The notes under the pieces were generated by a model, which made no database searches, had not been told where the DNA came from, and was given only the letters and a program-made list of their open reading frames with translations. Below are positions 5,400-34,324 of a stretch of 52,842 bases of DNA, piece after piece; the stretch's first letter is position 1; every line of letters begins with the position of its first letter. The position numbers were made by a program, and so were the translations under genes. This DNA is from a virus (lineage: Duplodnaviria > Caudoviricetes): positions 1-52,842 of IMG/VR virus record IMGVR_UViG_3300027657_000003. The stretch is one strand, 5' to 3'.

Positions 5400-5409
5400 G
5401 ACTATCCCT

Positions 5410-19881: not shown

Positions 19882-20272
19882 TGGCAGGCCACCGCAGCCC
19901 GCGTCAAGCGCGCTGCAGAAAGAAATTGATCTGGCACTGGCGGCGTTTGGGCAATGGAAGGAGGCCCTCGAGCAAAACGCCGACACGCTGGCACACGCCA
20001 TGGCCGCAGCGTTACGGACATTCCACGAAACGATGCAAAGGCACCTAGATAGCGCCATATCCTCCCATCTGGAGCATGGCGTTGATCTTGGCGATATCGA
20101 GATACAGGAAATCCCGGCCACGCACACCACCGTGTTGCTCGTAGCCGGGAAAGAGGTGCTTCGCCTCTGGGCCGCCTATGACGCGGAGGCAGGCCGAATA
20201 GATTTGTTTCTACGCGAAACTGTTCCCGGCGCCATGGGCGGGATGACCATGGCGGGGATGGTATCTACGTGA
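19868..20272 (+). CDS. Hypothetical protein downstream of the RHH gene
   Basis: Start 19868 with SD GGAGG, overlapping the RHH stop. Confidence 0.65.
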   Translation: MSPGDGRPPQPASSALQKEIDLALAAFGQWKEALEQNADTLAHAMAAALRTFHETMQRHLDSAISSHLEHGVDLGDIEIQEIPATHTTVLLVAGKEVLRLWAAYDAEAGRIDLFLRETVPGAMGGMTMAGMVST

Positions 20273-20285
20273 GCGAAACGGCAAC

Positions 20286-21476
20286 CTACACGCCGCGCTC
20301 AAACCTGATTTTGAGCTTCTGGTTTGGAAATTCCGGCGCGACAAGCAGGCGATGACGGCCGTCGACCACCTCGTATGTCCCGTCGCGCAGGGCCGCCACA
20401 ATGACGCCTCGCCCCTGGTTCTGGCGTCCCTGGCGAAACAGGTCGCGAATCGACTGCAGCCGCTCCTCGCTGGTTGCTTTGATAGGCCGGTCGAATGCCG
20501 TGAATTTGCGCAGGTTCAAATCTGCGCCGGATATCTCGCGCTCAACACCTTCCGGGGGGATCTCCGAATACTTCGGCGGCTTGGTTGCCGCTGTGTTCAG
20601 GATTTCATCAAACACCGGCTCCGGGTAGCATCGGCACTGTATCGGCTGCCCTGGATGCCCGTCGCTTGGAGGGTCGTCCCACTGGAAGCGCTCGCCATCT
20701 CGGGCCCTGTGATCGTCGCGAACGCGCTCATCGCGCACCGTCCGCCAGATATAGGACTCCACGCCCATATCCTCCTGCCGCACCTGGTTGATACGTCCGT
20801 AGAGCTTGCCGATCTGGTCGCGGGCGATGAGCCGGGCCCGTGCGCGGCCGTCGTCGATGATGCCGGCGAGCTCGCGCTGCAGCTCGCGGGTGAGCGTTCC
20901 TGCCTGCAGACCCCTGGTCACCGCGCGCTCGATTTTGCTGATGATCTGATCGGGTATATCGCGAATCAGCGCCACGTTCTCGGTCACGAAGCCGTCGACG
21001 AGCGCACCCAGCTTCCTGTCGCTCATCAGGATATCAATGTCAAGCGCGGCGCGTATCTGCCGGCCAAGCTGCTCCCGATTGTGCTCGGAGGTGCGGCCGG
21101 CCAGGCGCTGCGCCAGGCGCTCAATCGAATCGATGCGCAGCGCCGAGCGCAGCTTGCCGGCCACCTGGGCGATGAGGTCGCGAACGCGCCGGCCCTCGCC
21201 GATATCCATCCGCACAAGGGCGTCCACGCGCTCGGAGCGCGCCCGCTCCAGCAGCGCCGGCAGCTCGAACTCAAGGGGCTGCAGTTCGCGCTGTACCTGC
21301 GCGACAAGATTCATGAGCTCGCGGGCATACTCGCGCTCGATGGCCCGCGGTGGCACCTGCCGGGGCAGCCGGCGGCGCGAGGTCCGGGCGATGCCAATGG
21401 CCCGCCGCGCCCTCAACATCTCGGCCGTCTGGCGGGTGCGCTCGTTGGCGTCCAGGCGGTACGCCGCGCCCATCAC
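20286..21476 (-). CDS. MuF / SPP1 gp7-like head morphogenesis protein with C-terminal ParB/Srx-like domain
   Basis: RARLIARDQIGKL..YIWRTVRDERVRDDH..HPGQPIQCRC; YEVVDGRHRL. Confidence 0.9.
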   Translation of the reverse strand: MMGAAYRLDANERTRQTAEMLRARRAIGIARTSRRRLPRQVPPRAIEREYARELMNLVAQVQRELQPLEFELPALLERARSERVDALVRMDIGEGRRVRDLIAQVAGKLRSALRIDSIERLAQRLAGRTSEHNREQLGRQIRAALDIDILMSDRKLGALVDGFVTENVALIRDIPDQIISKIERAVTRGLQAGTLTRELQRELAGIIDDGRARARLIARDQIGKLYGRINQVRQEDMGVESYIWRTVRDERVRDDHRARDGERFQWDDPPSDGHPGQPIQCRCYPEPVFDEILNTAATKPPKYSEIPPEGVEREISGADLNLRKFTAFDRPIKATSEERLQSIRDLFRQGRQNQGRGVIVAALRDGTYEVVDGRHRLLVAPEFPNQKLKIRFERGV

Positions 21477-22954
21477 TCGCCCTCGCCCGTGTCAGCCTCT
21501 CCAAGGACGCCGCGCAGGTCGCGCGCCCATACCCGCTCCATTGCATCCCGCAGCGCATTCCCTTCGCCACTTGGCCGGTCCTCGTCCGTCTCCGCCGCCG
21601 GCACGTCACCCTCCGGTGCATCGAGCAGAGCCCGGGCCGCAAAATCCACCTGGGTCTCAAACGAGTAGCCATCGCCGCCGAACCGCGCCAGCGCCACCTC
21701 CTCGGGGGATAGCACTCCAGATTGGATGTAGATCTGGTCGCTCTGGGCCTGCACCAGCCGCGCGTCTGCCCGCTCCTTGTCGCTGGGCTGATACAGCGGG
21801 CAGTATTCGACCGACCACAGATCCGGCTCTTTCCCCCGCGTGGGCGCATTGCGTGCGAGCATGATGAGTCGCAACAGCCGCTCGTGCCGCGGACGGAGTC
21901 CCTTCTGGTGCCGGCCTATCGTGTCGTAGAAAAACCGCGTATCGCTTTCGCCCGTGGCGTTCAGGCCCGCCGGGCTCTGCCCAAACAGTCTGGTTACGGG
22001 CATATCTGCGGCGGCGGCTAGCCTGGTAGCAAAACGGTCCAGGAGCTCTGGGAGCCCGGTCATCGGCGTGGCTTTGCGCTCGTACTCCTCGTTGGAGTCG
22101 AGGACGAGCATGCGCAACACGGACCGGCTCATAGCCATCGACTGCATTTTCTTGTAAAACGCTTTGTCATTGTCGGTGGCGAAGATTTGCGACAAGTTCT
22201 GTACCTTGACCACCGCCTGGGCGAAATCCGTCATCAGGATGGCCGCCGCCTCCCACGATAGCCCAAAATCGCGCAGCACCCCGTTCATCGAGGTGAGCAC
22301 CGAGTCTCCCCAGCCGGCCAGCGTGCCCGTTGGCTGGTCGCGGGTCACCCGAATGCCGGGCCAGATTATCAGCCTTGACTCGTGGATCTCCTGCATCATC
22401 GCCGCGCCGCGGCCAGCAATCGGATGCAGGCGATAGGTCATCGGCTCGCCGTATTTCCTGTCGCGCGGGTCATCGTAATAGGTCGCGGGGGAGAGCTCGC
22501 GCGGCTCGAACACCGTCAGGTGCTCAATCTCCATGATGTTTTGCTCGCGCAGCGGCTCGCGCAGGTCGGCAGCGCCGTCATTGCAATACGGCATGATGGC
22601 GGCCCCGCCATACGCCCGCTGGAACTCCTCGGCCCGCTGCAGCTTGGCATCCACCTCGAGGTCTTCGCAGAACGCCGTCAGCTTCTCGGCCACCGCCTTG
22701 TCCTGCATGCGCAGCTCCCCGCCGGCGCGCAGCATCTCCCCGGGGATAACCTCGATGACCTTCTTCGCGATATCGTTTCCGCGCCACAGATCCGCCGCTT
22801 CGACATCGGTCACCGGCGCCAGGCCGAAGCGCACAGCCGTCCGCGGGTCGCGCTCCTGGGTCCCCACGCCGAGCAGCGCGCTTTGCCATCCATCCTGCCG
22901 CGCCTCGGGCAACTGCCGCCGAGAGCGCGCCCAGGGCTTCCACCATGGTGCCAT
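21473..22954 (-). CDS. Portal protein (DUF1073)
   Basis: RAYGGAAI..IHESRLI..WGDSVL..AADMPVTRLFGQSPAGLNATGESD. Confidence 0.95.
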   Translation of the reverse strand: MAPWWKPWARSRRQLPEARQDGWQSALLGVGTQERDPRTAVRFGLAPVTDVEAADLWRGNDIAKKVIEVIPGEMLRAGGELRMQDKAVAEKLTAFCEDLEVDAKLQRAEEFQRAYGGAAIMPYCNDGAADLREPLREQNIMEIEHLTVFEPRELSPATYYDDPRDRKYGEPMTYRLHPIAGRGAAMMQEIHESRLIIWPGIRVTRDQPTGTLAGWGDSVLTSMNGVLRDFGLSWEAAAILMTDFAQAVVKVQNLSQIFATDNDKAFYKKMQSMAMSRSVLRMLVLDSNEEYERKATPMTGLPELLDRFATRLAAAADMPVTRLFGQSPAGLNATGESDTRFFYDTIGRHQKGLRPRHERLLRLIMLARNAPTRGKEPDLWSVEYCPLYQPSDKERADARLVQAQSDQIYIQSGVLSPEEVALARFGGDGYSFETQVDFAARALLDAPEGDVPAAETDEDRPSGEGNALRDAMERVWARDLRGVLGEADTGEGE

Positions 22955-22960
22955 TGGCTC

Positions 22961-22990
22961 ACCGTGGCGCGTATTCGTCGGCTATCGCAA
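22961..22990 (-). promoter_or_regulatory. Candidate leaderless promoter for the portal gene
   Basis: TTGCGA-18 bp-CACGGT-6 bp-ATG(22954). Confidence 0.45.
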
Positions 22991-23016
22991 CGGACTCAGA
23001 TTATCAGACGCGCCTT

Positions 23017-23511
23017 TTATTCCACTTGATATCCCGTGGATATCGATTCACACCGGAAGCGCTCGGCCTTGACCGCCTCAGCTGCCTTGATGGCCTGCTC
23101 CACCTCTTCGGCCGTGAGCTCGCCGGCAGTCGCCACGACAGTCATGGTGCCGTCGCTCATCGCGCTGACCATGGCGCGTGCTGGCATGTCGTCCGCCTCA
23201 TACAATGGGAGCATGCCGGCGCGTGAGAACAGCGAGATAGCCCCTGTCGCTGGCGACAGCACTCGGCGCAGCTTCCCGATATATTGTGGATTGGCCACCA
23301 CGTACACCACGACAGGCGGCAGACCTCGCACCATATCGACGCATGCATCGAGGTCGGCGATGGTGAGGCCCTTGCTGGGCTCCGGCTCATTGCTGCAGAC
23401 CACGGCTTCATCGCGGGCGTTCATCTCTGCAGCAGCCCAGCGCGCATGACCGTAGCCGTAGGTGGCCGGCAATACGGCCGTCGCACGCAGGCGTGGTACT
23501 TTGCCGCTCAT
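23017..23511 (-). CDS. Hypothetical protein
   Basis: Start 23511 by ATGA coupling. Confidence 0.6.
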   Translation of the reverse strand: MSGKVPRLRATAVLPATYGYGHARWAAAEMNARDEAVVCSNEPEPSKGLTIADLDACVDMVRGLPPVVVYVVANPQYIGKLRRVLSPATGAISLFSRAGMLPLYEADDMPARAMVSAMSDGTMTVVATAGELTAEEVEQAIKAAEAVKAERFRCESISTGYQVE

Positions 23512-23897
23512 GGCGCCCACCCAACAATCTTGGTGATTGGTGTCGGCGACTTGGCAAGAAAGCCCTCCCCGCCGCACAACTTGCATGGCTCCCAGACGGT
23601 GACTTTTTGCGCAACATACAGGGGGCGCTCGTGCACTTCCCCCGACCATTCATCTCGGACGTCCTCATATCCGACGTGCTTTTGCACGGTCGTCGTTCGC
23701 CCTGTCGAAACCTTGCCCTCGGAGCGGCATTGTGGGCATGGGTGTTTCAGTCCGCGCTGTCCCGCAGCATATGCGCGCTTGCAGCGTTCATGCATGATCA
23801 AATTTTGGAATATGATAATCGGTGCCGACCGCAAATCTTGAAGACATGCTGGGCATACACCATGTCCTTGAACCTGGATGATCGTCTCTGAACTCAT
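23508..23897 (-). CDS. Zinc-finger protein (DnaJ-type CxxCxxxG motifs)
   Basis: CPAC..HERC, CPQCRSEG, CKLCGGEG. Confidence 0.7.
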   Translation of the reverse strand: MSSETIIQVQGHGVCPACLQDLRSAPIIIFQNLIMHERCKRAYAAGQRGLKHPCPQCRSEGKVSTGRTTTVQKHVGYEDVRDEWSGEVHERPLYVAQKVTVWEPCKLCGGEGFLAKSPTPITKIVGWAP

Positions 23898-23917
23898 CGC
23901 CCGCCATCGTAACGCAA

Positions 23918-24250
23918 TCAAGCGCCGCTTTGGCGGCATTTTTGTATGCGCGCCGCGATTCGTTCCTCGACAAAATCCGCCATATCAGGCTCATCTCCCG
24001 GCCACGCCTCGTACACGGCCCGCCCGTACTCCTTGCCCCATCGCTCGGCATCCTCGCGATATGGCGATGATGCCAGGTATGAGTCCACCAAGCTCACGCC
24101 ATTGCCCTCTGCTTCGGCCCACGTTCGCCATCCCTCCGGCCTATTCAAGTCCGGCATCGGCGAGCTGTGCACCCGGCATGGCGCCGGCTCATCGCATCCT
24201 GGCCGTCGGCAGCGCGCCGCGCCCGTGCTTATCTCCACTCCAAATCCCAT
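23918..24250 (-). CDS. Hypothetical protein
   Basis: ATG 1 nt after the upstream stop; CRRPGC..CRVH. Confidence 0.55.
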   Translation of the reverse strand: MGFGVEISTGAARCRRPGCDEPAPCRVHSSPMPDLNRPEGWRTWAEAEGNGVSLVDSYLASSPYREDAERWGKEYGRAVYEAWPGDEPDMADFVEERIAARIQKCRQSGA

Positions 24251-24251
24251 G

Positions 24252-24665
24252 TCAGCAACCCGCCGCGTCATCATTTCCATCCCATGCAAACACGGTGATG
24301 ATCATCAGCATTCCAACCTGATCGCCGGGCGCGGGCGCCCTGTTTACTATTTCCTGCAGCAGCTGGCAGAGATTCTCATCACCCCACGCGCGAATCTTTT
24401 GCCATTCCACATCGAGCCCTCTCCGATTTGGAACACCCACCTGATGTCCGACATAGCGACGCACAGGCGGGCGCTGTGGGCCACCCTGGCCAAGAGCATG
24501 CTCTTGCAGGTGTAGCTCCGCCACACCCCAAGGCATACATTCAGCAAGGTCTGCCCGTTCAGCCCAATTGCCACCGACGCCGCCAACGACGGGGACCGGG
24601 TGAATGAAGACCGGTACCGGTGTACCCGGGTGAATGAAGGAACGTTCATCAACGGTCACTCCCAT
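24252..24665 (-). CDS. Hypothetical protein
   Basis: Fits between neighbours with 1-nt gaps; SD GGAG. Confidence 0.45.
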   Translation of the reverse strand: MGVTVDERSFIHPGTPVPVFIHPVPVVGGVGGNWAERADLAECMPWGVAELHLQEHALGQGGPQRPPVRRYVGHQVGVPNRRGLDVEWQKIRAWGDENLCQLLQEIVNRAPAPGDQVGMLMIITVFAWDGNDDAAGC

Positions 24666-24666
24666 A

Positions 24667-25251
24667 TCATTCTCCGCTCAAGAAGTCCTGATAGGCCACC
24701 CTGCAGGCTTCGCAGCCACACTTTCCGGCGCACCCAGATTCGCACTCGGCAGGGCAGGTGCCAAGCTCCCCATCGTAATCCACACAGTGCTCGGGTCGGC
24801 CGACGCGCCCGCCGAGCTTGTAATATATCGATTGCAGCTCGGGATTTGACAGGACAGCGCCAGCGATTCCCGATCCGCACTCGACGAGCGCCTGCCAGAC
24901 ATCATAAAGCGCCGGCTGTGCCATTTCCGCATCGCGCCCGCCCTCGATCTCTCGCAACGCGGCCTCGGCCTCGCCACCCATATAGCCGCAGCACATGTCG
25001 CACTGCCTCCAGTGCCGCACAAGCGCCAGCTTCTCTTCCCATGTCAACGCCTCTCGGTCGCCCGTGGTTCCGGAGCCTCCGGACGTTGCATCGCGCAGCA
25101 GCGTCGTCGCAAGCATCTTCTTCGCCAGCTCCTCGGCGGCACCTGGCCTGCCGGCCATCAGGTCAACGATCGCCTCCCGGCTCACAGCATCGTTTGTCTT
25201 TGGCTTGTCTCTCAGTATCGCCTCGCGTATTCGTTGTTCCTCTATCGTCAT
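24667..25251 (-). CDS. Cys-rich hypothetical protein
   Basis: C-terminal CPAECESGCAGKCGCEAC; follows terL. Confidence 0.65.
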   Translation of the reverse strand: MTIEEQRIREAILRDKPKTNDAVSREAIVDLMAGRPGAAEELAKKMLATTLLRDATSGGSGTTGDREALTWEEKLALVRHWRQCDMCCGYMGGEAEAALREIEGGRDAEMAQPALYDVWQALVECGSGIAGAVLSNPELQSIYYKLGGRVGRPEHCVDYDGELGTCPAECESGCAGKCGCEACRVAYQDFLSGE

Positions 25252-25263
25252 ACGCGCACCATA

Positions 25264-26856
25264 TCACCTGTACGCCGCCAGAAACAGCGAAAGCGAGGGG
25301 TCGGAGCGGAGATCGATAAGCGCCTGGCAAAGCGTGTCGACGCGGTCATTCCGGGAGCCTTTGGGAAACATGGCGAACTGGCTCACAAACGCATCGAGCC
25401 ATGGTGCCCCCTCGGCAAGATACACGTCACCCGCCTCGATCTGCGGCTGCGCAAGCGCGGCCCGGGCCTCCTTCGACACCGTCGGCGAGACCGTCACGAC
25501 CCCCGGGACACCGGCTTCTTGCAGGCTCTCGACGATGGCCGGCCCGAGGGCCTTGTCCTCCACGATGACCTTGACCGCGTTCCAGCGCCGCCAGAGCTCG
25601 ATGATCAGTTCGCACGCCTCGCGGACGCTGTGATGCCCTGATTTGTCGTCCAGCACGAACCGCTTGGCCCCGGCAGCTCCGATCGCCTGGATGCCCGTCT
25701 CGGAGCCCGACACCGTCTTCTTGCCGCTGGCGTCCACGCTTATGACGGTGATGTCCAGCTTCGGCAGAATGACGGACGGCTCGCTCGCGCATCCAGTCGG
25801 CCGCGCCGGCCATGGCCCCTCGTGCTCAGCCCAGAATCGCCACCATGACCGCTGGAATATGCCGCCCTTGGCCGGCTCCGGGTCCTGGTTGTACTGGCCG
25901 CTGAATCCGTAGCTGCCCAGGCGCACCCGCTCGCTCTCGACCACCGCCGGCGTAAAGCGCACCGGGTCCATGATGGCACCGTCCTCGGTGCGAGGGTCCC
26001 GCCATGTCTCCTCGCCACCCGGGCGATAGCGGTTGTCGTTCCCCACCGGCATCGCCGTGGCGCAGGCCTTCTCGCGCGAAAATTCGAGCGGCACGCGAAG
26101 GTGACACCACCGCGGCTGGGCTGGGTCGTCCTTCGCCGCCTTGAGCACGTATCCCGACCAGTCCTCCTCGTGCACCCGTTGCATGATGCCAATGCGGATC
26201 GAGGCGCGCAGGTCGCGCACGCGGTTCCACATGGCGTTCTTCCACTTGTTGATGACCGCCACCCGCGCCGCCTCCGAGTTCACCTCCTCGGCATCGTGGG
26301 GATCGTCGGGCAGGATGCAATCCGCGCCCTCGCCGGTGATGGCCGAGAACCAGCCCCGGCTCTTGCGGTACCCCAGCTTCACCACTCCCCCATGCTCGTC
26401 CGGTGCCTCAATGCCGAAGTCGCTGAGCGCATCCCGGTCATCCTTGAGCGTCCAGCTCGGGGCAAACCAAGTCTGATACCACGTGGATAAAATGAGGTCG
26501 CGCGAATCCCGCGCATTGTCGGCCGCTACGCGTGGGTTTGCGCTCAAGGTGATGAACGTCATCTCAGGCCAATGCAGCCACGCCCAGGCCGGCGCGCACA
26601 CGCTCACAATGCGGGACTTGAGCGACCGCGGCGGGATGTTGATAAGCAGGTTCTGCACCTGCATCTCGTACGCCGGGCCCGCCCGCTTCCGCGCCCATTC
26701 CTCCATCGTCCACTGGACATGGTCGCAGATGGCATCGAGGTGCCAGCCCCAGTCCAGGGGCGTGCCGGGCTCGATCGCACCCCAGCCGTAGCGCACGAAG
26801 TCGGCCAGCCGCCGCCGGCACTTCTCCGCCCGGACATCCTGCAGAGTCGGCCCCAC
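25264..26856 (-). CDS. terL: Terminase large subunit
   Basis: Walker A NIPPRSLKS, Walker B ILPDDP, IMQRVHEED, nuclease ISVD..EDKALG..NDRVD. Confidence 0.96.
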   Translation of the reverse strand: MGPTLQDVRAEKCRRRLADFVRYGWGAIEPGTPLDWGWHLDAICDHVQWTMEEWARKRAGPAYEMQVQNLLINIPPRSLKSRIVSVCAPAWAWLHWPEMTFITLSANPRVAADNARDSRDLILSTWYQTWFAPSWTLKDDRDALSDFGIEAPDEHGGVVKLGYRKSRGWFSAITGEGADCILPDDPHDAEEVNSEAARVAVINKWKNAMWNRVRDLRASIRIGIMQRVHEEDWSGYVLKAAKDDPAQPRWCHLRVPLEFSREKACATAMPVGNDNRYRPGGEETWRDPRTEDGAIMDPVRFTPAVVESERVRLGSYGFSGQYNQDPEPAKGGIFQRSWWRFWAEHEGPWPARPTGCASEPSVILPKLDITVISVDASGKKTVSGSETGIQAIGAAGAKRFVLDDKSGHHSVREACELIIELWRRWNAVKVIVEDKALGPAIVESLQEAGVPGVVTVSPTVSKEARAALAQPQIEAGDVYLAEGAPWLDAFVSQFAMFPKGSRNDRVDTLCQALIDLRSDPSLSLFLAAYR

Positions 26857-27167
26857 TATTTCCCCTCGGCCTCCGCCTTGGCCAGTAGCCCCTCATATAT
26901 CGCCAGCTCCTCATCAGACAGCTTGGATAGGTCGTGCTTCGGCGCCTCCACCTCCGAGACCTCCACCGTTTGCACGGGCTTGCCCCAGCCACGGTCAGCC
27001 AGGAATTTGGCCGCCGATATCCGGTCCCTTGTCTCCTCGCTCTCGTTCAGCACCACGCCGAGAGCAAACTCAATAATCATGTCAGGATTCACGAGCTGCC
27101 TCACGCGGCTCGCAAAGCCCTTCGGGCGCCCACCTGGGTTACCAGATTGTCCTTTTTTAAATGCCAT
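26856..27167 (-). CDS. terS: Terminase small subunit (DUF5681-type N-terminus)
   Basis: FKKGQSGNPGGRPKG..DRISAAKFLADRGWGKP..LSKLSDEEL. Confidence 0.9.
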   Translation of the reverse strand: MAFKKGQSGNPGGRPKGFASRVRQLVNPDMIIEFALGVVLNESEETRDRISAAKFLADRGWGKPVQTVEVSEVEAPKHDLSKLSDEELAIYEGLLAKAEAEGK

Positions 27168-27172
27168 TTTCG

Positions 27173-27201
27173 TTGCCTATCTCCTTATTATCGTGCATAA
27201 T
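27173..27201 (+). promoter_or_regulatory. Sigma70-like promoter, leaderless
   Basis: TTGCCT-17 bp-CATAAT-6 bp-ATG(27208). Confidence 0.7.
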
Positions 27202-27207
27202 ATAAAT

Positions 27208-28065
27208 ATGTCGCAAGCTCTTTTGCCACTGACCCCTTTGATGCCAAAGGACGCCGCGATAAGAGCCGAGTGCCGCTCGGCTTCTTTCCGCATCGCATGC
27301 GTCGAGTCCGCCGCGCAGGCCATCGGGAGGCTGTCGGGAGGCTGTCGAATCGTAGGCCTCACCAAAGGCCAGTTCTCGATGCTCGACCTGATTCGCGCGG
27401 TGCTCGCGCAGACGGGTCCCGCCGACCTCGTGCTGAGCACCTGGACGATGGGCATCAGGGACCTGGAGAATGCCCGGTGGCTCATCGACAACGGCGATCT
27501 CCGGTCCTTTCGCCTGCTCACCGACCGCTCGTTCGTGACGCGGCAGGCGTCCTACTGCCAGCGCCTCGTCGCACTGTTCGGCACGGACTGCATCAGGGCC
27601 TCGAATACCCACGCCAAATTTTCGACGCTCCGCAACGAGGCGTGGAGCGTCTGTATCCGGGGGTCGATGAACCTCAACCGCAACGCGCGGTGGGAAAACT
27701 TCGACCTCGACGAGGATGAGACGCTCTGCAACTTCTTCGATGGCCTCGTGACGGAGCTCGAAGCGCTCACTCCGCCCGGGCCAAATCCCAGCGGAGATGT
27801 CGTGGAGGATGTCTTCTCGCAGGCCCTCGAAACCGCAACCTGCGGCGATGTCCGCCTGGCCGAGATGACGCCGCGTGAAAGGTGGGCGCGGCTCGGATAC
27901 TCGCAAGAGCAGATCCGGGAGCGCGAGCAGCGAGCTGGCGACGAGTTCACCCGCGGCCGCGACGCCCTTGAGGACAGCTTTCGCGAGGCCACAATCGCCG
28001 CCGCTCTCTCTGGCGATGAAAAGGCGCGCCGGCTCGTTTCTCGATGGCTCGCAAAAGCCTGCTAA
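27208..28065 (+). CDS. Phospholipase D-family (HxK) nuclease-like protein with C-terminal helical domain
   Basis: THAKF..IRGSMNLNRNARWE single PLD motif; LSTWTM. Confidence 0.85.
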   Translation: MSQALLPLTPLMPKDAAIRAECRSASFRIACVESAAQAIGRLSGGCRIVGLTKGQFSMLDLIRAVLAQTGPADLVLSTWTMGIRDLENARWLIDNGDLRSFRLLTDRSFVTRQASYCQRLVALFGTDCIRASNTHAKFSTLRNEAWSVCIRGSMNLNRNARWENFDLDEDETLCNFFDGLVTELEALTPPGPNPSGDVVEDVFSQALETATCGDVRLAEMTPRERWARLGYSQEQIREREQRAGDEFTRGRDALEDSFREATIAAALSGDEKARRLVSRWLAKAC

Positions 28066-28066
28066 G

Positions 28067-28096
28067 GCCGTGTTTTCAAACGGCTTTTTGTTTTTT
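28067..28096 (+). terminator. Intrinsic terminator of the PLD gene
   Basis: GCCGT-gttttcaa-ACGGC stem followed by TTTTTGTTTTTT, just after the stop. Confidence 0.65.
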
Positions 28097-28187
28097 CGGC
28101 GACTCTTCTTCTGAGAATCGTCGCCATCTGTAAGCTGCCTGCTTGACATGATATTCCGTGTCGTGGTCCCCTCGCGCGCGGTTTCTC

Positions 28188-28868
28188 TCAGGCACTGAGG
28201 CGAAGACGCGCCGTGTACCCAAGTCCGCGGCGTCCCTCGTACCCAATGAGCCCTTTGTCCACGGCTGCCGTGATGGCCCGCCGTACGGTAGATCTGCCGA
28301 CCCCGATGCGCTCGGCCAGCTCACCAAGCGTCGAGCAGAGCAGGATATTCGCGAGCACCACGTGCATGGTCTTCGCTGGCCGGGTCGCGCCGCTGCAAGG
28401 TATCGCGATATGCCCATGTTCCAGGGTCTCTGGTTCAGCTGCACGCATGAAGCGGGCATAGGCGCTCACTTCCCGGCAGGCAGTACGAGACCGCACGCCG
28501 AACTCCCGGGCTATGGCCAGCCAGCCGACGCCTGCTCGATGCCTCTGCCAGGCCTCGCGGCGCCAGGTCGCTGCCATATCGCCGACACGCCTGATTGCCG
28601 TGTATGCTCCGGAGTACGATTTGCCGCGTTGGACGGCAATCACGCTCACAGGCACGCCCCGCTGACGCTCTCGCCACATAGCCATGTGTTCGGCTGCGCA
28701 ACGCGACGGCAGCCCGCTGGTCCGAACGACATCCGCTTCCTCGGCAGCTTGATACACGAAATGGCCGGTGACCCGGGCGATCCTGGCGACCTCGTAGACA
28801 TGCAGGCCAAGGCAGTACAACTGCACGCAGGCCGCGCGCAGCGCATCATGTGACGCAGTTGCCCTCAA
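28188..28868 (-). CDS. Multi-HTH DNA-binding protein (candidate late regulator)
   Basis: Four HTH-like units, e.g. WLAIAREFGVRSRTA and LGELAERIGVGRSTVRRAI; TTG start by overlap. Confidence 0.7.
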   Translation of the reverse strand: MRATASHDALRAACVQLYCLGLHVYEVARIARVTGHFVYQAAEEADVVRTSGLPSRCAAEHMAMWRERQRGVPVSVIAVQRGKSYSGAYTAIRRVGDMAATWRREAWQRHRAGVGWLAIAREFGVRSRTACREVSAYARFMRAAEPETLEHGHIAIPCSGATRPAKTMHVVLANILLCSTLGELAERIGVGRSTVRRAITAAVDKGLIGYEGRRGLGYTARLRLSA

Positions 28869-29266
28869 AACGGGATCACCGCCTCGCCGCACATGGTGCA
28901 CTCACCATCAGTGTCAGCGCCGCAGGCGCACCGGTCGCGTGGCGGCCACACGGCTTCGTCGGGGGCCACCGTCGTTGTTTCCGCCATCCACATCCGCATC
29001 CGTTCGATGTTATCAAGCCATTCCATCCCTTCGACGCTCTTTGGCGCCACACCGGCGGCAACGGCGCGCCTCGCAATCGCCCACCTATGAAGCGGGTCAC
29101 CCAGCAAAGGCGCCCACCGGCTTGGGTCTCCGCGACGCGTGGTGCACAGCATCCGCAGCCACCGGCGCCAGTCCCAATACAGCATTGGTCTGGCATCGCC
29201 GCGGGCAATACTTCTCTGCATCCGTTCAAACAACGGCCAAAACTCTGCCTGCCATGTTTCGAGCAT
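28865..29266 (-). CDS. Hypothetical protein with Zn ribbon and IPF C-terminus
   Basis: CACGADTDGECTMCGEAVIPF; TGATG coupling. Confidence 0.6.
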   Translation of the reverse strand: MLETWQAEFWPLFERMQRSIARGDARPMLYWDWRRWLRMLCTTRRGDPSRWAPLLGDPLHRWAIARRAVAAGVAPKSVEGMEWLDNIERMRMWMAETTTVAPDEAVWPPRDRCACGADTDGECTMCGEAVIPF

Positions 29267-29421
29267 CACTGCTGCTCCTGTTTGCGCATCAAACCCGCCA
29301 TCCGGCGGGCAATGCGCGCCCGGGCCAAATACCACGCGCGCGCCTTCCTGAGCCTGCCCAGGCGCTTGGCCACGCGTTCGTCAAGGTCCGCGGCCGCTGT
29401 CCACCACTCGCTCGCCGTCAT
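29266..29421 (-). CDS. Small basic hypothetical protein
   Basis: Coupled by overlaps on both sides. Confidence 0.5.
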   Translation of the reverse strand: MTASEWWTAAADLDERVAKRLGRLRKARAWYLARARIARRMAGLMRKQEQQ

Positions 29422-30170
29422 TGCTTCGCCCTCAGATTCGCGTCCGCTGTGCCGCGGACGACGCACCGCTTGCTCCAGCGGTCGCGCAGCCGCTCGTCGC
29501 CGAGATAGCCGGAAAACTGAGCCGGCACCAGGTTGCTGGTCATCAGCGTGGCCCGGCGGTGCTTCCAGCGCACCTCGATGAGATCCTGGACGGCGCCGGC
29601 CAGTGCAGTGACCTGAATGGCCGCATACTTGCCGTCTTTTTGCTTGATCTGTTGCTCAATCTGCTGCCCGTCCTTCCAGCCAACATCATCGAGCACCAGC
29701 GCATCAGCGTTCGCCAGCGCCTCCCAGCGGGCCTGATGGGTCACCGTGCCCATGGCCAGCCCAGCAACCTCGCGAGAGTCAACCCAGCGGCGCACAGGAG
29801 CGCTCTGGGGCAGGTGGAAGGTCATCAGCCACCGGGCAGCCGCCGTAGACTTCCCGGAGCCCAGGCCGCCGCACAACAAACCCCAGAGCACCCCGTCGCG
29901 GCGCATCTCCTCGACCGCCTGCAGCGCTGCCCGTGGCTCGAGCTGGCCCAGGGCCGCCTCGCTGTACTCGCGAGGTATGCCGGCCCGGTCGGCAATAGCC
30001 AGCCGTCGCCGCAATACCTGGTCGTCGCCGTCGCGCTGATCGCGCGCATGGTCCGGCTGGCAGCGCGAGAGCGCTCGCTCACCTACCGCAGCAAGCTCGG
30101 CCGCATCGGCGCCATGCCGGCGCACGATGTCGGCCACAAGGTCACCCGCTCTTTGTGTCATTTTTGACAT
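29418..30170 (-). CDS. DnaC/IstB-like AAA+ helicase loader
   Basis: GGLGSGKS, LVLDDVG, TLMTSNL, DERLRDR; follows the initiator. Confidence 0.9.
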   Translation of the reverse strand: MSKMTQRAGDLVADIVRRHGADAAELAAVGERALSRCQPDHARDQRDGDDQVLRRRLAIADRAGIPREYSEAALGQLEPRAALQAVEEMRRDGVLWGLLCGGLGSGKSTAAARWLMTFHLPQSAPVRRWVDSREVAGLAMGTVTHQARWEALANADALVLDDVGWKDGQQIEQQIKQKDGKYAAIQVTALAGAVQDLIEVRWKHRRATLMTSNLVPAQFSGYLGDERLRDRWSKRCVVRGTADANLRAKQ

Positions 30171-31455
30171 ATGGCAAAAACTCCTCCGGGCTTGCCGGCG
30201 GCATGCTGTGCAGTTGAGGCCCACGGCCACCTCGACCGCGATGTTTTTGGCGCTGGCGACGGCGCGCATCCTCTGGCGTTTGCGCGAGCGCTCGCACGAT
30301 CTGCTCCCGCTTCCAGTTCGTCCGGCCGTTGAAATAGTCCAGCGGAAGCTCTCCGGATTCCTTGCGCGCCTCGGCCTCGGCCGCGAACACATCAAGAGCG
30401 CGAACCAGGTCGGCCGGCGCGATATCTTTCTGCAGCTTGGCGAGCTCGTCGAGATAGCCGCCGGGGTGATCGAGCAGGGGGACAGCCGGGCAATCTGGCA
30501 CCACGCGCCGACGCTGTTCGTGCTGGTATTCCCAGAGAGCCCGGCCATTGGCGCGGCGCTGGAGCACCGTCTCGGAACCTCGCAGCGGTGAGGTCATCGC
30601 CTGCAATTCCGCGATGGTAGGCACTCCAGGTTCCCGGGTCCCGGTTCCCGTCACGGGTTCCGGTCCTGGGTTCCGGTCCTGGGTTCCCGGTTCCGGAACC
30701 GACGGGTTCCCGCCACGGTTCCCGTCCGGAACCCTGGGAACTACAGCGTCAGAGAGCGTGGGCTGAGAACGGTGGGGATCTTGGCTCTCTCTCTCGTTCT
30801 TGGCTTCCGGAGCAGGAGAAGGAGAGAGAGAAAGAGATCGCGCCAGCCCGCGCGAGGAACTCTCACGGGAACCGCGAGTTCCCGGCTGGGTTCCGTGTTC
30901 CGGAACCGGTGGGTTCCCGCCACGGTTCCCGTCCGGAACCGTGGGAACCGTGAGCCGCAAATACCCGTCTTGCTCAACGGCAGTGCCATCCTGCAGGAGC
31001 TGGCGCACGGCCGCGTACACGGCGGCCTTGCGCGCACGCAGCGCCTTGACGAGGTCTTTTCGTTTCCGCGGGCCATTGGCGAGCTCGGCCAGCATACCAC
31101 GACGCACCCTGTCCTCGACAGGAGCGGCCGCAGCCTCGTCGCTGTCGTCGTCGTCGTTTTTCCAGTCCGTTCGTTTCCTGCAGCCGCGAATCTGTATGGC
31201 GCCGCCTTCGATCTCGTCGCCAAGCTCGCTGTCAACGATCGCCCGTTTCGCCTTTTCCGCCGACAGGTCCCATAGGTCCTCAAGGTACAGGATAGCGATT
31301 TCGTCGGTCCGCCACTCCGTGCACCAATGCCACACAGCAATCATGCGCTCCAAACCAACGGCGTGGGCCCACTTTCGTGGCGCGCCCAGCAGGCGGCCCA
31401 GGCGCGTAAATCGCGGGTCAAGCAGCGCTTTGGTTTCAACGTTTACTCTCGCCAT
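30142..31455 (-). CDS. Replication initiator protein
   Basis: N-terminal wHTH-like regions, low-complexity iteron-encoded linker, upstream of the loader. Confidence 0.8.
   Translation of the reverse strand: MARVNVETKALLDPRFTRLGRLLGAPRKWAHAVGLERMIAVWHWCTEWRTDEIAILYLEDLWDLSAEKAKRAIVDSELGDEIEGGAIQIRGCRKRTDWKNDDDDSDEAAAAPVEDRVRRGMLAELANGPRKRKDLVKALRARKAAVYAAVRQLLQDGTAVEQDGYLRLTVPTVPDGNRGGNPPVPEHGTQPGTRGSRESSSRGLARSLSLSPSPAPEAKNERESQDPHRSQPTLSDAVVPRVPDGNRGGNPSVPEPGTQDRNPGPEPVTGTGTREPGVPTIAELQAMTSPLRGSETVLQRRANGRALWEYQHEQRRRVVPDCPAVPLLDHPGGYLDELAKLQKDIAPADLVRALDVFAAEAEARKESGELPLDYFNGRTNWKREQIVRALAQTPEDARRRQRQKHRGRGGRGPQLHSMPPASPEEFLPYVKNDTKSG
30628..30950. repeat. Iteron cluster / candidate replication origin
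   Basis: Many GGTTCC(C)G / GGAACC units; ~51-bp direct repeat at 30691-30741 and 30898-30948 flanking CT- and GA-tracts. Confidence 0.75.
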
Positions 31456-31467
31456 TGGCCCTCGCTT

Positions 31468-32175
31468 TCAATCGAACAGAGACGCCTCGTGTGTCCACCG
31501 CACATCGCCGCCCATACGCGCCCGCGTCGGGCCCACGGCCACGGGCGCGGCCTCGATGACATCGCCGCGGTCATTCAGCAGGATGGCGACATGAGACTGG
31601 GCCGGCCGCTGGCTCCCGTCCGGGGTGACCGGCCGGCCCTTCTGATCCCGAAACGTAAAAACCAGATCACCGGGAACGAAGCCGGCCATAGAGTACGCCG
31701 CCCGCCCGGCCTTCGCCAGCTGGGCATATTGCCGCCACGCCCCGTCGACCAGCGGCCGCCCATCGATGAGGACGCCCAGCATTCGGCAACAGGCCTCCAC
31801 CAGCTCCGAGCAGTCCCACGCCCGCACCGGGCGCAGGGCCGCCGCCGCCTCGCCCCAGGTGAGCAGACGGCACGGCAGCGACTTGATCGGCTCCGCGCCA
31901 AAGACATAGCGACGCCCGGCCGTGGCCGCCAACGACAGCGCGATCAGCGACTCCGGGTCGCCCGCGCGCAGCTCGCGCGTCGGCAGGGCCGCCTGTGTCT
32001 TCGGTCCCAGCATGCCGTCGACGCGAAGCTCGCCATTGAGCCCTCGAATGGACTGGAACAGTGCCACGGCTTCTTCAAACGAGCGGCCCGGAAACCGCAG
32101 CCACAGATATTCCAGGTCCTGAGCAGTGAGCTCTCCGGCCTGGATACGATCGTTGTTGTAGACCGATGGCGTCAT
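31468..32175 (-). CDS. Endolysin-like: peptidoglycan-binding domain plus NlpC/P60 peptidase
   Basis: FQSIRGL..VDGMLGPKT; YVFGAE..WDCSELV..PGDLVF..SHVAI; SD GAGGAG. Confidence 0.88.
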   Translation of the reverse strand: MTPSVYNNDRIQAGELTAQDLEYLWLRFPGRSFEEAVALFQSIRGLNGELRVDGMLGPKTQAALPTRELRAGDPESLIALSLAATAGRRYVFGAEPIKSLPCRLLTWGEAAAALRPVRAWDCSELVEACCRMLGVLIDGRPLVDGAWRQYAQLAKAGRAAYSMAGFVPGDLVFTFRDQKGRPVTPDGSQRPAQSHVAILLNDRGDVIEAAPVAVGPTRARMGGDVRWTHEASLFD

Positions 32176-32538
32176 CCTGCCCTCTCCTCGGCGGCAGGAG
32201 CCGCCGGCAGCGGCATCCAGTGCGTCGGCATCCAGTGGCACTCGCGGCAACGGCATCCAGTGCGTCAGCTCCAACCGGTGGCCGCTCTGCGAATACCAGC
32301 CGCCAAACACCACTGCAGGCGGGCGCCCGTGCGTTGCGCTCTGCCGCCACCGGGCGATTTTCCATGTCCGGCCAGTCCAGACCATCAACTCGCTACCGTC
32401 CCGCGGCGCATGCTCGATCGCCTGCGGCCGGCGTGCACGGTAAGCGTTCACAGCGCAGGGCGCGCACAGCGGCCGGCCATCGCAATCGAGCATATCCTCG
32501 CCAAGCCACCCGCAGTGCTGGCAGGCCGGCCTATCCAT
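32172..32538 (-). CDS. DUF551-like protein, now reading in frame into the endolysin
   Basis: IEHAPRDGSELMVW..THWMPLP; apparent ancestral stop at 32172-32174 is out of frame. Confidence 0.7.
32205..32266. repeat. 40-bp-period direct repeat of THWMPLP codons
   Basis: CGGCATCCAGTGCGTC at 32211-32226 and 32251-32266, partial copy 32226-32237. Confidence 0.9.
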
Positions 32539-33325
32539 GTGTCACCGCCTCGTCGTAGTAGCCAGCGTGCGGCGCCCACGGCGTCGGCTCGCGATGCTCC
32601 GGCTGTGGCTCTGGAGGCAGGTAGAAACACTGCAGGATCATGTCGCTCCGACCTCCTTCCCACGTCCGGTCGGCACAAAGCTCATCAGCCCATACGCACG
32701 CCGAATATCCGTTTTCGCCATGAGGCGACATCCACGCGCCCTCGCCCTCATATCGCCACGCCACCCCACGCCACGGCGCCGGCCACAGCCGCAGCCGCAT
32801 GCCGCCGTGCCGGCCAGGAATGGGCGCGACGGGGCAACCAGTATCATGATATGCCGCCTTCCAGAAATCGCCGCGTGCGCGACACGTGCACGCCAGCTCG
32901 CGCGGCGATGGGCCGGGGAGCTGGACCGTGACCTCGCAGTCTACCTCAGTCCATCCTCCCGTCGGCCCCCACCAAAGCAACACACCACCGTCGCGGCGCT
33001 CCGCCGCGGTTATCGCGGTTGATCCGCTGCCGTCCGCATGTACGTACAGCATCCCCGGCACCACCTCGCGCGCCGGGATTCGGTAGGGTGGGCGCGCCGG
33101 TTCGGTGCAGGGCCACGCTGCCGCCGTGAGAGCCGGCGTCGTCGGGGCATACTCCCAGTCCGAGAGAAACGAGCAGGCGTAGCCAGGCACACGCTCTGGA
33201 CACCCGCCCTCGGCGGCCAGTCTCCGCACAAACGCCACCCCTTTGTAGGACTGGATCGTCCGGCCAAGAATCAGCCCATTCGCGGGCCGCTTCCACTGCC
33301 ATTCATCTGGTCGTAATTCGCTCAT
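32531..33325 (-). CDS. Hypothetical protein
   Basis: 264-aa ORF tightly packed in the operon. Confidence 0.6.
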   Translation of the reverse strand: MSELRPDEWQWKRPANGLILGRTIQSYKGVAFVRRLAAEGGCPERVPGYACSFLSDWEYAPTTPALTAAAWPCTEPARPPYRIPAREVVPGMLYVHADGSGSTAITAAERRDGGVLLWWGPTGGWTEVDCEVTVQLPGPSPRELACTCRARGDFWKAAYHDTGCPVAPIPGRHGGMRLRLWPAPWRGVAWRYEGEGAWMSPHGENGYSACVWADELCADRTWEGGRSDMILQCFYLPPEPQPEHREPTPWAPHAGYYDEAVTHG

Positions 33326-33379
33326 AGTAACCTCGTGACCGTAATCCGCGCGCCTTCGTGTCCGGCGCTTTCAGGAATC

Positions 33380-34324
33380 TCACCCCGCATCCTCATCGCT
33401 GATCGGAGCCTGCTCTAAGATAACCTCGACATACAGGCCGCTCGGATCGCCATCCAAGAAGTCGCGGGCGTTCTTCCGCATCACCGCAAGGGCAATGAAA
33501 TCCTGCCACGCCCCTTCATCCATGACGAAAGATCTCGTGGCGGCCATAGTGATAAGCTTGTGGCATCCAGCGCACAAGGCGATCAAAAACTCGTTATCAG
33601 GGTCATTTGCTTTCCCAAATACATGATGAGACGAAAGCCCCTTGCTTATATGACGGCGACACAGTTGACACACGCCCTCGGCCAGCCCGATCGTGGTGCT
33701 CCGCTTGCCGCCAAAATACTGGCGGTCGACACGTTCGGCGGCAGAACATGACCGTGTGCAATTCTTCTGTTTCCCGCTCAAAGGGTAAAAGGTTTTACCG
33801 CAGTAAGAGCAGGTTTTTTCGCCAATATCAGAATGCGTGCGAGAATACTCGCCCCATCGTTCGGGGTAATACGTCTGAATCGCCCGCACAAGCGCTTCAA
33901 TATCCATTCCACGCGCGCGGCAAAATTGCCGCAATGACCCATCGAAAATTTCCAAATCGCGAGTCAGTCGCCCAACAGCCTTCTTTGTGAGACCTGCTCC
34001 ACGCGGAACTTTTCGTGCTCGCACCCCGCGATTACCGAAGTTTCCTGCCAGGCCGAGGCGTGAGATTTTACACGCCACAGAGGCATACGAGCGATTCAGT
34101 CTGCGCGCTATTTCTCCTATCGTGCACGTTCCAGCCAAGGTGCGCAGCTCGTCGTACTCCTCTCTTGTCCACGGCGTCCGCGCGAGATCGTGCCCCAATA
34201 ACTTGAGTCGCTCCCATACGGATTGCCCGGTGATTCCAAGTTGTTTTCCTGCCTTCCAAACACTTCCGGTCGCGCGATACGCTGTCACGACTTCGTCGTC
34301 GCCGACTCTTTGTCTCTGTGCCAT
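33380..34324 (-). CDS. HTH plus Zn-finger HNH endonuclease
   Basis: CQLC..SSHHVFGK..NEFLIALCAGCH; N-terminal HTHs; AT-richer than flanks. Confidence 0.85.
   Translation of the reverse strand: MAQRQRVGDDEVVTAYRATGSVWKAGKQLGITGQSVWERLKLLGHDLARTPWTREEYDELRTLAGTCTIGEIARRLNRSYASVACKISRLGLAGNFGNRGVRARKVPRGAGLTKKAVGRLTRDLEIFDGSLRQFCRARGMDIEALVRAIQTYYPERWGEYSRTHSDIGEKTCSYCGKTFYPLSGKQKNCTRSCSAAERVDRQYFGGKRSTTIGLAEGVCQLCRRHISKGLSSHHVFGKANDPDNEFLIALCAGCHKLITMAATRSFVMDEGAWQDFIALAVMRKNARDFLDGDPSGLYVEVILEQAPISDEDAG

Follow-up and report, generated by a model that had tools for sequence, protein, structure and literature searches.

Why does a phage carry a putative PLD nuclease gene directly beside its small terminase gene (terS), on the opposite strand? 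The window, that is, the whole stretch of 52,842 nucleotides analyzed here, is a viral contig of soil-metagenome origin, 68% complete, and consists of phage DNA throughout; its other genes include two methyltransferases, RecT, and an exonuclease. An earlier note, made from the letters of this DNA, had offered two explanations: a lysogen-expressed defence nuclease using a TerS mimic at its C-terminus to sense or sabotage packaging of rival phages, or a packaging nuclease. Small terminases are regarded as DNA-recognition rings without catalytic activity; cutting is ascribed to the large terminase (TerL), aided in some cos phages by HNH enzymes.

The PLD gene and its control region

The features of the locus are compiled in Table 1.

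Table 1. Features of the PLD gene and of the adjacent terminase genes; positions refer to the window.
Feature	Position	Strand	Remarks
Large terminase P0002, 530 aa, RNaseH-like nuclease domain	25264..26856	-	phrog_38 E 4e-83; Terminase_6C E 3.6e-9
Small terminase candidate P0001, 103 aa, DUF5681	26856..27167	-	PF18932 E 1.5e-8; 629 relatives; directly upstream of terL
Sigma-70-like promoter TTGCCT-17-CATAAT	27173..27201	+	9/12 matches; predicted transcript start is the A of ATG 27208
terS Shine-Dalgarno sequence AGGAGA	27180..27185	-	Within the spacer of the + strand promoter; direct reading
Promoter-like site TTGCGA-18-GATAAT facing terS	27187..27216	-	Overlaps the start of the PLD gene
PLD-fold nuclease gene P0003	27208..28065	+	285 aa plus stop; alternative start M12 at 27241
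PLD nuclease core, residues 21-193	27268..27786	+	phrog_16945 match; Foldseek matches; model pLDDT >90 across the core
Catalytic motif H135-A-K137 ... N143 ... G152-S153-M-N155	27610..27672	+	Direct reading; invariant columns
Acidic helical C-terminal domain, residues 192-285	27781..28062	+	Subfamily-specific; conserved LGY(T/S)..EI ... LED..REATI.AAL.GD..AR...W
Terminator-like hairpin (8 pairs, loop 8) and T-run	28064..28097	+	Hairpin 28064-28087; overlaps the stop codon

The sample had also been assembled independently, and this assembly covered positions 25500-29500 with zero differences and with no alternative joint at the borders of the PLD gene; a second study contained only short, diverged pieces of this region. 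The window stretch was found only in soil-metagenome DNA runs, two of them probably derived from the source sample. A search for direct or inverted repeats on both sides of the PLD gene, which might betray the inversion or insertion of a cassette, yielded only short matches of chance size. When the N-terminus of P0003 was compared with those of its homologs, M1 and M12 were equally compatible as start. The database gene call P0004, which starts at M58, was rejected as too short because conserved core residues would be removed.

The single HxK...GSxN PLD nuclease domain read in the earlier note was corroborated. The motif is intact, and P0003 matched the phrog_16945 profile with E 4e-48, residues 21-193 aligning to profile positions 46-218 of 252. 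Residues H135, K137, S153, N155, N159, and E163 were invariant across 17 and across 24 aligned homologs, and among the 109 extended family members conservation of the catalytic motif was 90% or higher. An AF2 model of P0003 with a mean pLDDT of 87 matched 22 PDB chains at E ≤ 1e-3 in a Foldseek search; among the matches listed, all belong to the PLD superfamily (nucleases, PLD3/4, phosphatidylserine synthase, FAM83), the best one being SauUSI (7clg) with E 2.7e-5. The gathering score of Pfam PLDc_2 was not reached (12.3 bits vs a cut-off of 27, E 0.15), and the PDB searched by sequence with the whole of P0003 yielded no match. P0003 is too distant from the Pfam model, and it is fold and motif that carry the PLD assignment. 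By these, P0003 is predicted to be a single-HKD PLD-fold DNA endonuclease with residues ~21-193 as its catalytic part.

Nuc (1byr), NucT (6ehi), and Zucchini (4gel, 4ggj) matched the fold of P0003 with Foldseek E values of 7e-5 to 7e-4 and have the HxK...GSxN motif in common with it; however, P0003 is only 10-20% identical to these proteins and has an extra C-terminal domain of 94 aa. The same PLD core is present in actinophage proteins such as BetterKatz gp1 and Arthrobacter phage Andrew gp58, which are classified as phrog_16945 'endonuclease' or SEA-PHAGES 'NucT-like nuclease'. These homologs showed 34-37% identity over residues 1-194 (tblastn, 56 phage records), but they lack the C-terminal domain of P0003, the matches ending at residue ~194. 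BfiI (2c1l), NgoAVII R (4rct), and SauUSI (7clg), all of them Foldseek matches of the model, resemble P0003 in that an N-terminal PLD nuclease is followed by another module; the module of P0003, however, is small, acidic, and helical and did not match the B3-like or helicase parts of these enzymes.

The start codons of the PLD gene and of terS (ATG at 27167, minus strand) are separated by exactly 40 bp (27168-27207), and the terS Shine-Dalgarno sequence lies inside the promoter spacer; both statements of the earlier note were confirmed by direct reading. Its promoter at a leaderless ATG was also upheld as a promoter-like site: three such sites were found near the PLD gene as compared to 0.4 ± 0.7 in shuffled sequences, and the -10 element ends 7 nt before the A of the PLD ATG, which fits a predicted leaderless mRNA. 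The two opposed promoter-like sites form a divergent control region with 30% G+C. As for the intrinsic terminator that had been proposed, a hairpin with a T-run is indeed located at the stop codon, but such hairpins were no more numerous than expected by chance (1 vs 1.4), and position is the sole argument for this candidate. Among the minus-strand phage genes from about 1.5 to 40 kb, no + strand gene other than PLD was found. The inverted orientation, in which the gene has a putative promoter and terminator to itself, is peculiar to this phage and would agree with a moron.

The C-terminal domain and fusions with small terminases

The C-terminal domain of P0003 occurred in 27 of the 225 proteins collected, invariably after the PLD core. 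The last ~70 aa had been thought to recall small terminases; this likeness was not borne out. Scans of residues 195-285 against Pfam and PHROGs at E ≤ 10 retrieved no TerS family, and hhalign comparisons gave probabilities of 0.5% with phrog_57-type TerS sequences and 0.2% with the DUF5681 alignment. A fold search with the model of the domain reached E 9.2 for the best PDB entry and 4.4 for the best BFVD entry, a negative result that is weakened by the modest quality of this model (pLDDT 75). The Atlas fold search retrieved generic helical matches only, and a PDB search with the C-terminal profile retrieved nothing but designed helical proteins, with E values no better than 0.9. Furthermore, the domain has a pI of 5.0, unlike a DNA-binding TerS domain. 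By sequence profile and by predicted fold, it is thus not detectably TerS-like. The partner of the C-terminal domain is more likely a protein than DNA. A complex prediction of the PLD protein with the phage's own TerS returned a score of 0.00 and no verdict.

Genuine fusions of PLD with TerS were found in other members of the family. Of the 109 PLD proteins extended by at least 60 aa, 11 contained a phrog_57 TerS domain (best E 3e-22), and one further extended protein matched phrog_141 TerS. In these members phrog_57 TerS occupies the position of the C-terminal domain of P0003, which itself has homology to neither phrog_57 nor DUF5681 TerS. P0022 illustrates the exchange: its core is 47-48% identical to that of P0003, and TerS replaces the C-terminal domain (BLASTP E 8e-6). 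At 4 of the 16 terL-linked loci (L008, L009, L022, and L029) the terS slot is filled by the PLD protein itself, the extended PLD reading frame abutting terL with no intervening ORF of at least 60 aa. The protein of L008 is built as N-extension - PLD - TerS C-part, and in proteins of this kind a TerS-like frame is interrupted by the PLD core.

The fused forms are scattered over the PLD tree; five rows need four changes and another five rows need three. The tree is poorly resolved, and fusions of single origin may be compatible with it. At least two fusion architectures were found across clusters of <50% identity with the catalytic residues kept, and this persistence suggests selection on the chimeras. 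The real TerS fusions occupy the phage's own terS slot before terL; hence, they are not decoys.

Position of PLD homologs relative to the terminase genes

A total of 41 homolog loci was reduced to 32 non-redundant ones. At 16 of these, the PLD core is followed within 3 kb (0.4-2.9 kb) by a co-directional terL, and the terL genes concerned belong to three TerL families (phrog_2, phrog_15, and phrog_38). Two loci (L020 and L040) have terL convergent to PLD; in the window it is divergent. No terL was found in the remaining 14 loci, nine of which extend <1.5 kb downstream and four at least 3.4 kb. At L004, a homolog that shares the C-terminal domain of P0003 is followed by terS (phrog_57) and then terL (phrog_15). 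In the Gordonia phage BetterKatz group (16 records), PLD is gene 1, terS is gene 5, and terL is gene 6. BetterKatz thus likewise has PLD ahead of terS and terL, but the actinophage genes are co-directional with their neighbours, and so are most PLD relatives with packaging or late genes.

The PLD family comprises 1,245 clusters at 50% identity. Homologs closest to P0003 (P0005-P0013, 60-73% identity) were located on short Logan contigs, and in representative prokaryote genomes a homolog was present in one MAG contig only. Placement upstream of terS and terL together with natural fusions ties the PLD family to packaging, and at the family level this link is real. Hence, 'packaging nuclease' is the better of the two alternatives of the earlier note; the family-level part of this claim stood, and the role of the protein itself we infer.

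Possible roles of the PLD nuclease

Since members of the family usually lie just ahead of the packaging genes, and some of them are joined to TerS, the PLD protein probably has its role in packaging and not in defence. Our preferred reading, to which we assign a probability of roughly 0.45, is that the enzyme serves the packaging module as an accessory endonuclease, much as HNH enzymes linked to terminases do. By analogy to Nuc, NucT, Zucchini, and BfiI, two PLD copies would pair, each contributing a His-Lys-Asn set to a single active site that works without metal. In other subfamilies the position of the C-terminal domain is taken by other modules, including a complete small terminase. This variable module would serve to position the nuclease, which in the fused forms would be on the TerS ring. 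We regard the family as a recurrent, horizontally exchanged accessory of packaging modules. Its common order is PLD - terS - terL - portal, at the beginning of the late arm, and the gene in the window occupies the same slot in inverted orientation. Because the 40-bp A+T-rich divergent promoter region is common to PLD and terS, both genes may be co-activated. The most likely job of the enzyme would be to cut or trim phage DNA in step with the terminase, e.g., to make termini or to clear concatemers.

Enzymes of the HK97 gp74 type reportedly stimulate cleavage by the terminase. HNH enzymes have a beta-beta-alpha-metal fold, whereas P0003 is of the PLD type and, by analogy, metal-independent; neither HNH motif nor HNH fold was found in P0003. 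A further difference is the occasional fusion of PLD to TerS. The parallel to the terminase-associated HNH enzymes of cos phages is positional only, an accessory nuclease beside terS/terL and the genome end (PMC3592412). In the openly accessible literature we found no paper on a PLD or 'NucT-like' nuclease with terminase and no biochemistry or genetics of any member. A wider proposal is more tentative: PLD-fold nucleases may constitute a second, HNH-independent class of terminase-associated nucleases, in which TerS of some phages would be a metal-independent catalytic subunit and the form in the window would dock on the packaging machinery via its acidic C-terminal domain. We regard this as possible, with the odds against it. 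If the packaging reading is true, the family represents an unstudied way to cut or process DNA during packaging; the window itself is more modest, holding an ordinary family member in an unusual inverted, self-contained arrangement.

The neighbourhood survey suggested in the earlier note supported a link to terL at half of the loci; it also revealed that the PLD gene is sporadic and a constant part of no packaging lineage examined. No PLD gene was present within ±4 kb of terS at any of 80 DUF5681-terS loci (best 80 of 386) or in any of 75 relatives of the terL of L004. When positions 20000-34000 of the window were compared by tblastx with the homolog loci, little substantial was shared beyond the PLD gene, the exceptions being a head-morphogenesis segment (L031) and a weak portal segment (L013). 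Homologs with 51-63% identity adjoin unrelated terS/terL families or occupy other modules. Such a distribution would also be expected of a selfish homing or marker-exclusion cassette in or beside terS/terL, which cuts PLD-free relatives during co-infection and has no direct function in packaging; the in-frame PLD-TerS forms would then be tolerated insertions. Both gene orientations seen, the own promoter and terminator in the window, and the PLD core interrupting a TerS-like frame agree with this reading, and terminase loci are known sites of free-standing HNH endonuclease genes (PMC3592412). We nevertheless consider a selfish element unlikely. The gene is carried by all 16 records of the BetterKatz group and by 37 Arthrobacter records, which resembles stable inheritance, and two or more fusion architectures are kept across <50%-identical clusters with their catalytic residues intact. 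Furthermore, we know of no PLD-fold homing endonuclease. Phages of the Malibo, Ruthy, or DumpsterDude type are relatives that lack PLD. A search for empty sites in viral contigs retrieved no close relative of the TerL of the window, and near-identical genome pairs with and without the PLD gene were not found; therefore, no empty site or target is definable. If the selfish reading were nevertheless right, the outcome would be a new fold class of selfish nuclease aimed at the terminase locus.

Several homologs are located outside packaging modules. In the 37 Arthrobacter phage records the PLD gene follows the gene of the ssDNA-binding protein in the early region; at L016 a homolog whose C-terminal domain is that of P0003 lies between a DNA methyltransferase and a helicase-methyltransferase; and at L030 the homolog is found near replication genes (DnaB, primosomal genes). 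These positions, as well as the order PLD - methyltransferase - terL at L005 and the two methyltransferases, RecT, and exonuclease of the window, would fit a general nuclease of DNA metabolism (host DNA breakdown, recombination, or replication) that is unrelated to the terminase, the phage's own DNA perhaps being protected by methylation. Methyltransferases are, however, common in phages, and their co-occurrence with PLD may be a matter of chance. A general nuclease leaves both the repeated fusion to TerS and the placement directly ahead of terS/terL in half of the loci unexplained, and we judge it to be rather improbable.

Least probable of all is the defence moron expressed from a prophage, or packaging interference by a TerS decoy, that the earlier note had favoured: the solitary + strand gene with a sigma-70-like promoter and a terminator-like hairpin would suit it, and PLD nucleases do occur in the restriction or defence enzymes SauUSI, BfiI, and NgoAVII, but positive evidence was lacking. 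The C-terminus is acidic and TerS-unlike in every test, true TerS fusions take the place of terS in their own phages, late genes run in the same direction as the PLD gene in most relatives, and neither integrase nor host DNA was seen in the window, a partial contig of phage DNA. P0003 shares its superfamily with DISARM DrmC and other defence PLDs; however, it matched no PADLOC model at E ≤ 1, partner genes were absent nearby, and no restriction-modification or defence context was found.

A replacement of a dead TerL nuclease by PLD was also considered and rejected for the window. Terminase_6C matched residues 373-514 of its TerL, and three acidic motifs, judged by eye, are kept; this TerL retains its own nuclease domain, and PLD is therefore not required as a substitute.

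PLD core and C-terminal domain

The 285-aa product of the PLD gene (P0003) matched phrog_16945 'endonuclease' of the PHROGs over residues 21-193 with E 4e-48; Pfam PLDc_2 gave only a sub-threshold match (E 0.15). The AlphaFold model (24 homologs) had a mean pLDDT of 87. A Foldseek search with this model yielded 22 chains at E ≤ 1e-3, and all among the matches listed belong to the PLD superfamily, among them Zucchini, Nuc, NucT, BfiI, NgoAVII R, and SauUSI (its PLD nuclease part). Residues H135, K137, S153, N155, N159, and E163 are invariant in close homologs and at least 90% conserved in 109 more distant extended members. The profile match, the fold, and the catalytic residues thus bear out the PLD nuclease domain proposed in the earlier note.

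The family comprises 1,245 clusters (50% identity) at E ≤ 1e-3 and 763 at E ≤ 1e-10. Annotation pipelines know it under a PHROG and a function name from SEA-PHAGES; the 56 records from isolated phages, all actinophages (37 Arthrobacter, 16 Gordonia, two labelled only 'Bacteriophage', and one Corynebacterium), are annotated as 'NucT-like nuclease' or 'endonuclease'. Corynebacterium phage phi16 (KY250482.1, 509-865, 'hypothetical protein') is another isolated phage with a PLD gene near its left end, with 66% nucleotide identity to the PLD gene of Gordonia phage BetterKatz.

Residues 192-285 of P0003 form a helical domain, well modelled in the full-length protein, with the conserved signature LGY(T/S)..EI ... 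LED..REATI.AAL.GD..AR...W. A profile of this domain matched 27 of 225 collected proteins, each time behind a PLD core. Its supposed likeness to TerS was not confirmed. TerS families were absent from the Pfam and PHROGs matches at E ≤ 10, and a PDB sequence search returned nothing of note. Comparison by hhalign gave a probability of 0.5% against a phrog_57-type TerS set and of 0.2% against a 30-sequence alignment of the window's DUF5681 TerS. When the domain was folded alone, the best matches in PDB (E 9.2) and BFVD (E 4.4) amounted to no match, the strength of these negatives being limited by a modest model (pLDDT 75); a protein atlas search brought up generic helical neighbours only. By these profile and fold comparisons, the domain has no detectable likeness to TerS. 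It is acidic (pI 5.0 in P0003; 17 of 22 homologs have values under 6), which speaks against DNA binding and for a putative protein-binding function.

Linkage to packaging genes

From genome, viral, and metagenome collections, 41 homolog loci were obtained; merging of identical or overlapping contigs and of one 92%-identical pair left 32 non-redundant loci. PHROG profiles identified terL in nine loci; these TerLs then served as tblastn queries for the remaining loci. In 16 of the 32 loci, a same-strand terL follows the PLD core at a distance of 0.4-2.9 kb, and in two (L020, L040) terL is convergent; none was seen in 14. Downstream sequence in loci lacking terL was below 1.5 kb in nine cases, 1.7-2.3 kb in two, and at least 3.4 kb in four. 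The linked terL genes fall into three PHROG families (2, 15, and 38); the association therefore either arose anew or was transferred between unrelated packaging modules. Locus L004, whose homolog has the same C-terminal domain (51% identity), shows the order PLD, terS (phrog_57, E 1e-21), terL (phrog_15), and in BetterKatz PLD, terS, and terL are genes 1, 5, and 6, respectively.

The strongest evidence for a packaging link is provided by fusions of PLD and TerS. Among 222 collected PLD-core proteins, 109 carry an N- or C-terminal extension of at least 60 aa; phrog_57 TerS is matched by 11 of these 109 (best E 3e-22) and phrog_141 by one. Two architectures occur. PLD is joined to a whole TerS in P0097 (profile positions 7-178 of 199) and in P0022, which has a core 47-48% identical to that of P0003 and aligns with residues 221-372 to the TerS of L004 (E 8e-6). 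An N-terminal extension, PLD, and the C-terminal two-thirds of TerS make up P0098 and the 446-aa protein of L008 (profile positions 52-175). In L008, L009, L022, and L029, the extended PLD ORF adjoins terL with no ORF of at least 60 aa between them and therefore fills the terS slot. In a quick maximum-likelihood tree built from 217 PLD cores, fused forms are scattered, with five rows accounting for four changes and another five for three; tree support is weak, and a single origin may still explain them. The packaging link suspected earlier is thus real at the family level, by synteny and fusions. This family-level linkage is the interesting part and can be tested directly in harmless actinophages. 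A search of the openly accessible literature found no report on a PLD nuclease with terminase; within that reach, the family is known from annotation only.

In 19 of the 32 loci, an inward-pointing PLD core begins no more than about 450 nt from one end of the contig (L004, L005, L007, L008, L009, L010, L019, L022, L025-L029, L032, L036, L037, L039, L040, L043), some on contigs of 10-36 kb; only about four loci are located close to the opposite end. A physical genome end may be located just upstream of the PLD gene, as in BetterKatz with PLD as gene 1; the overlap of L018 and L033 reveals at least one such end as a mere assembly break. In L040, terL (3195-4775, minus strand; phrog_2, E 6e-33) overlaps a portal-like ORF (4606-6123, plus strand; E 2e-10) by about 170 nt, either an unusual divergent arrangement or a spurious portal call.

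The inverted gene unit

CheckV rated the 52.8-kb viral contig (65% G+C) as 68% complete, and its sequence is contained in soil metagenome runs. In an assembly from what is probably the source sample, the PLD region is covered with zero differences and zero alternative joints. Identified genes from about 1.5 to 40 kb are on the minus strand, the PLD gene being the sole exception within this arm.

Features of the window and methyltransferase genes at homolog loci
Feature	Position	Strand	Remark
Tail genes	after head-morphogenesis gene in descending coordinates	-	
Head-morphogenesis gene	20286..21476	-	
Portal	21473..22954	-	
terL	25264..26856	-	
terS	26856..27167	-	DUF5681
Promoter-like site	27173-27201	+	TTGCCT-17-CATAAT; 7 nt from end to A of PLD ATG
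Promoter-like site	27216..27187	-	faces terS
PLD gene	27208..28065	+	285 aa
Terminator-like hairpin and T-run	begins at PLD stop codon	+	1 found, 1.4 expected (chance level)
ORF, 237 aa	28188-28901	-	phrog_645, E 8e-4
Several unknown genes	between DnaC-like loader and terS in descending coordinates	-	
DnaC-like loader	29418..30548	-	
ORF, 437 aa, unknown	30142-31455	-	
RecT, exonuclease, two DNA methyltransferases	from 40 kb onward	+	methyltransferases at 44201-45652 and 49264-51351
L002	1-1343		methyltransferase near PLD homolog
L005	1178-1990		PLD, methyltransferase, terL
L016	3296-4537 and 8780-11197		methyltransferase, PLD, helicase/methyltransferase

The start codons of the PLD gene and terS are 40 bp apart, as the earlier note had read, and this gap has 30% G+C. 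Three promoter-like sites were found in the region vs 0.4 expected. The spacing of the plus-strand site to the ATG is the predicted geometry of a leaderless transcript, and AGGAGA of terS falls within its spacer; both points of the note held, the promoter as a predicted site. Given the opposed site as well, the gap has the appearance of a divergent control region, probably shared by the PLD gene and terS. The claimed intrinsic terminator has its hairpin and T-run in place, at a frequency not above chance.

M1 and M12 are both candidate translation starts. The public gene call P0004 (27379-28065, 228 aa) begins at M58 and is probably mis-started, because it drops the family-conserved residues 21-57 (including A30 to S57). 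New in the window is the combination of a subfamily-specific acidic C-terminal domain with an inverted and self-contained gene layout, divergent from terS.

Several minor observations concern the neighbourhood. The arms diverge at 39.7-40.3 kb, the minus arm carrying replication, packaging, and structural genes and the plus arm RecT, exonuclease, and methyltransferases; their meeting point is likely a regulatory switch region. For the 237-aa ORF, which lies immediately upstream of the PLD terminator region, no family match was convincing; by eye it contains several HTH-like segments, and its product could be a late regulator or a further DNA-binding protein acting in the packaging region. The loader and the 437-aa ORF share about 400 nt, and GC3 is coding-like in both; probably one start is misplaced, or the overlap is real. 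In a soil metagenome run of a second study, short contigs are about 92-97% identical to 27339-27558 (within the PLD gene) and 28228-28567 (within the neighbouring ORF); therefore, a related phage exists elsewhere. The sequence beyond is unlike the window, and the pieces recovered are too short for a comparison of layout.

Distribution and possible roles

Searching by tblastn with 15 diverse PLD queries, we found no PLD homolog within 4 kb in the best 80 of 386 loci with a window-like DUF5681 terS. The 75 relatives of the L004 terL likewise carry none. Position also varies: in L016, a homolog sharing the C-terminal domain of P0003 is located between DNA methyltransferase and helicase-methyltransferase genes; in L030, the gene is near replication genes; and in Arthrobacter phages it comes after that of the ssDNA-binding protein. 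Synteny of homolog loci with the window ends at the PLD gene, save for a substantial head-morphogenesis piece (L031) and a weak portal piece (L013). With its sporadic presence and varied position, the PLD gene thus behaves like an exchangeable accessory with a preference for the head of the packaging module rather than a fixed component. Both features, and the window TerL keeping its own nuclease domain, speak against an essential packaging role.

Our tentative main reading (probability roughly 0.45) is that two PLD copies would form a dimeric, metal-independent endonuclease, tied by its variable C-terminal module to the packaging machinery and acting in concert with terminase on the phage DNA. 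In this phage, the gene occupies the slot upstream of terS but is inverted. Work on HK97 gp74 reportedly offers a parallel with an HNH endonuclease. In position, the PLD gene resembles the HNH endonucleases which flank terminase genes (PMC3592412).

A selfish homing or marker-exclusion nuclease, which we regard as unlikely, would also fit the sporadic distribution, the occurrence in either orientation, the signals that the gene has of its own, and the in-frame insertions. Still less probable is a nuclease of general DNA metabolism. The defence or TerS-decoy moron favoured by the earlier note was not upheld and is the most doubtful: PADLOC gave no match, lysogeny had been assumed, with neither integrase nor host genes seen in the 68%-complete window, and the decoy is contradicted because genuine PLD-TerS proteins occupy their own phage's terS slot.

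Genes for DNA methyltransferases were seen repeatedly in the vicinity of PLD homologs, and one is also present in Arthrobacter phage Andrew; the co-occurrence may be fortuitous or may reflect a pairing of nuclease and protection.
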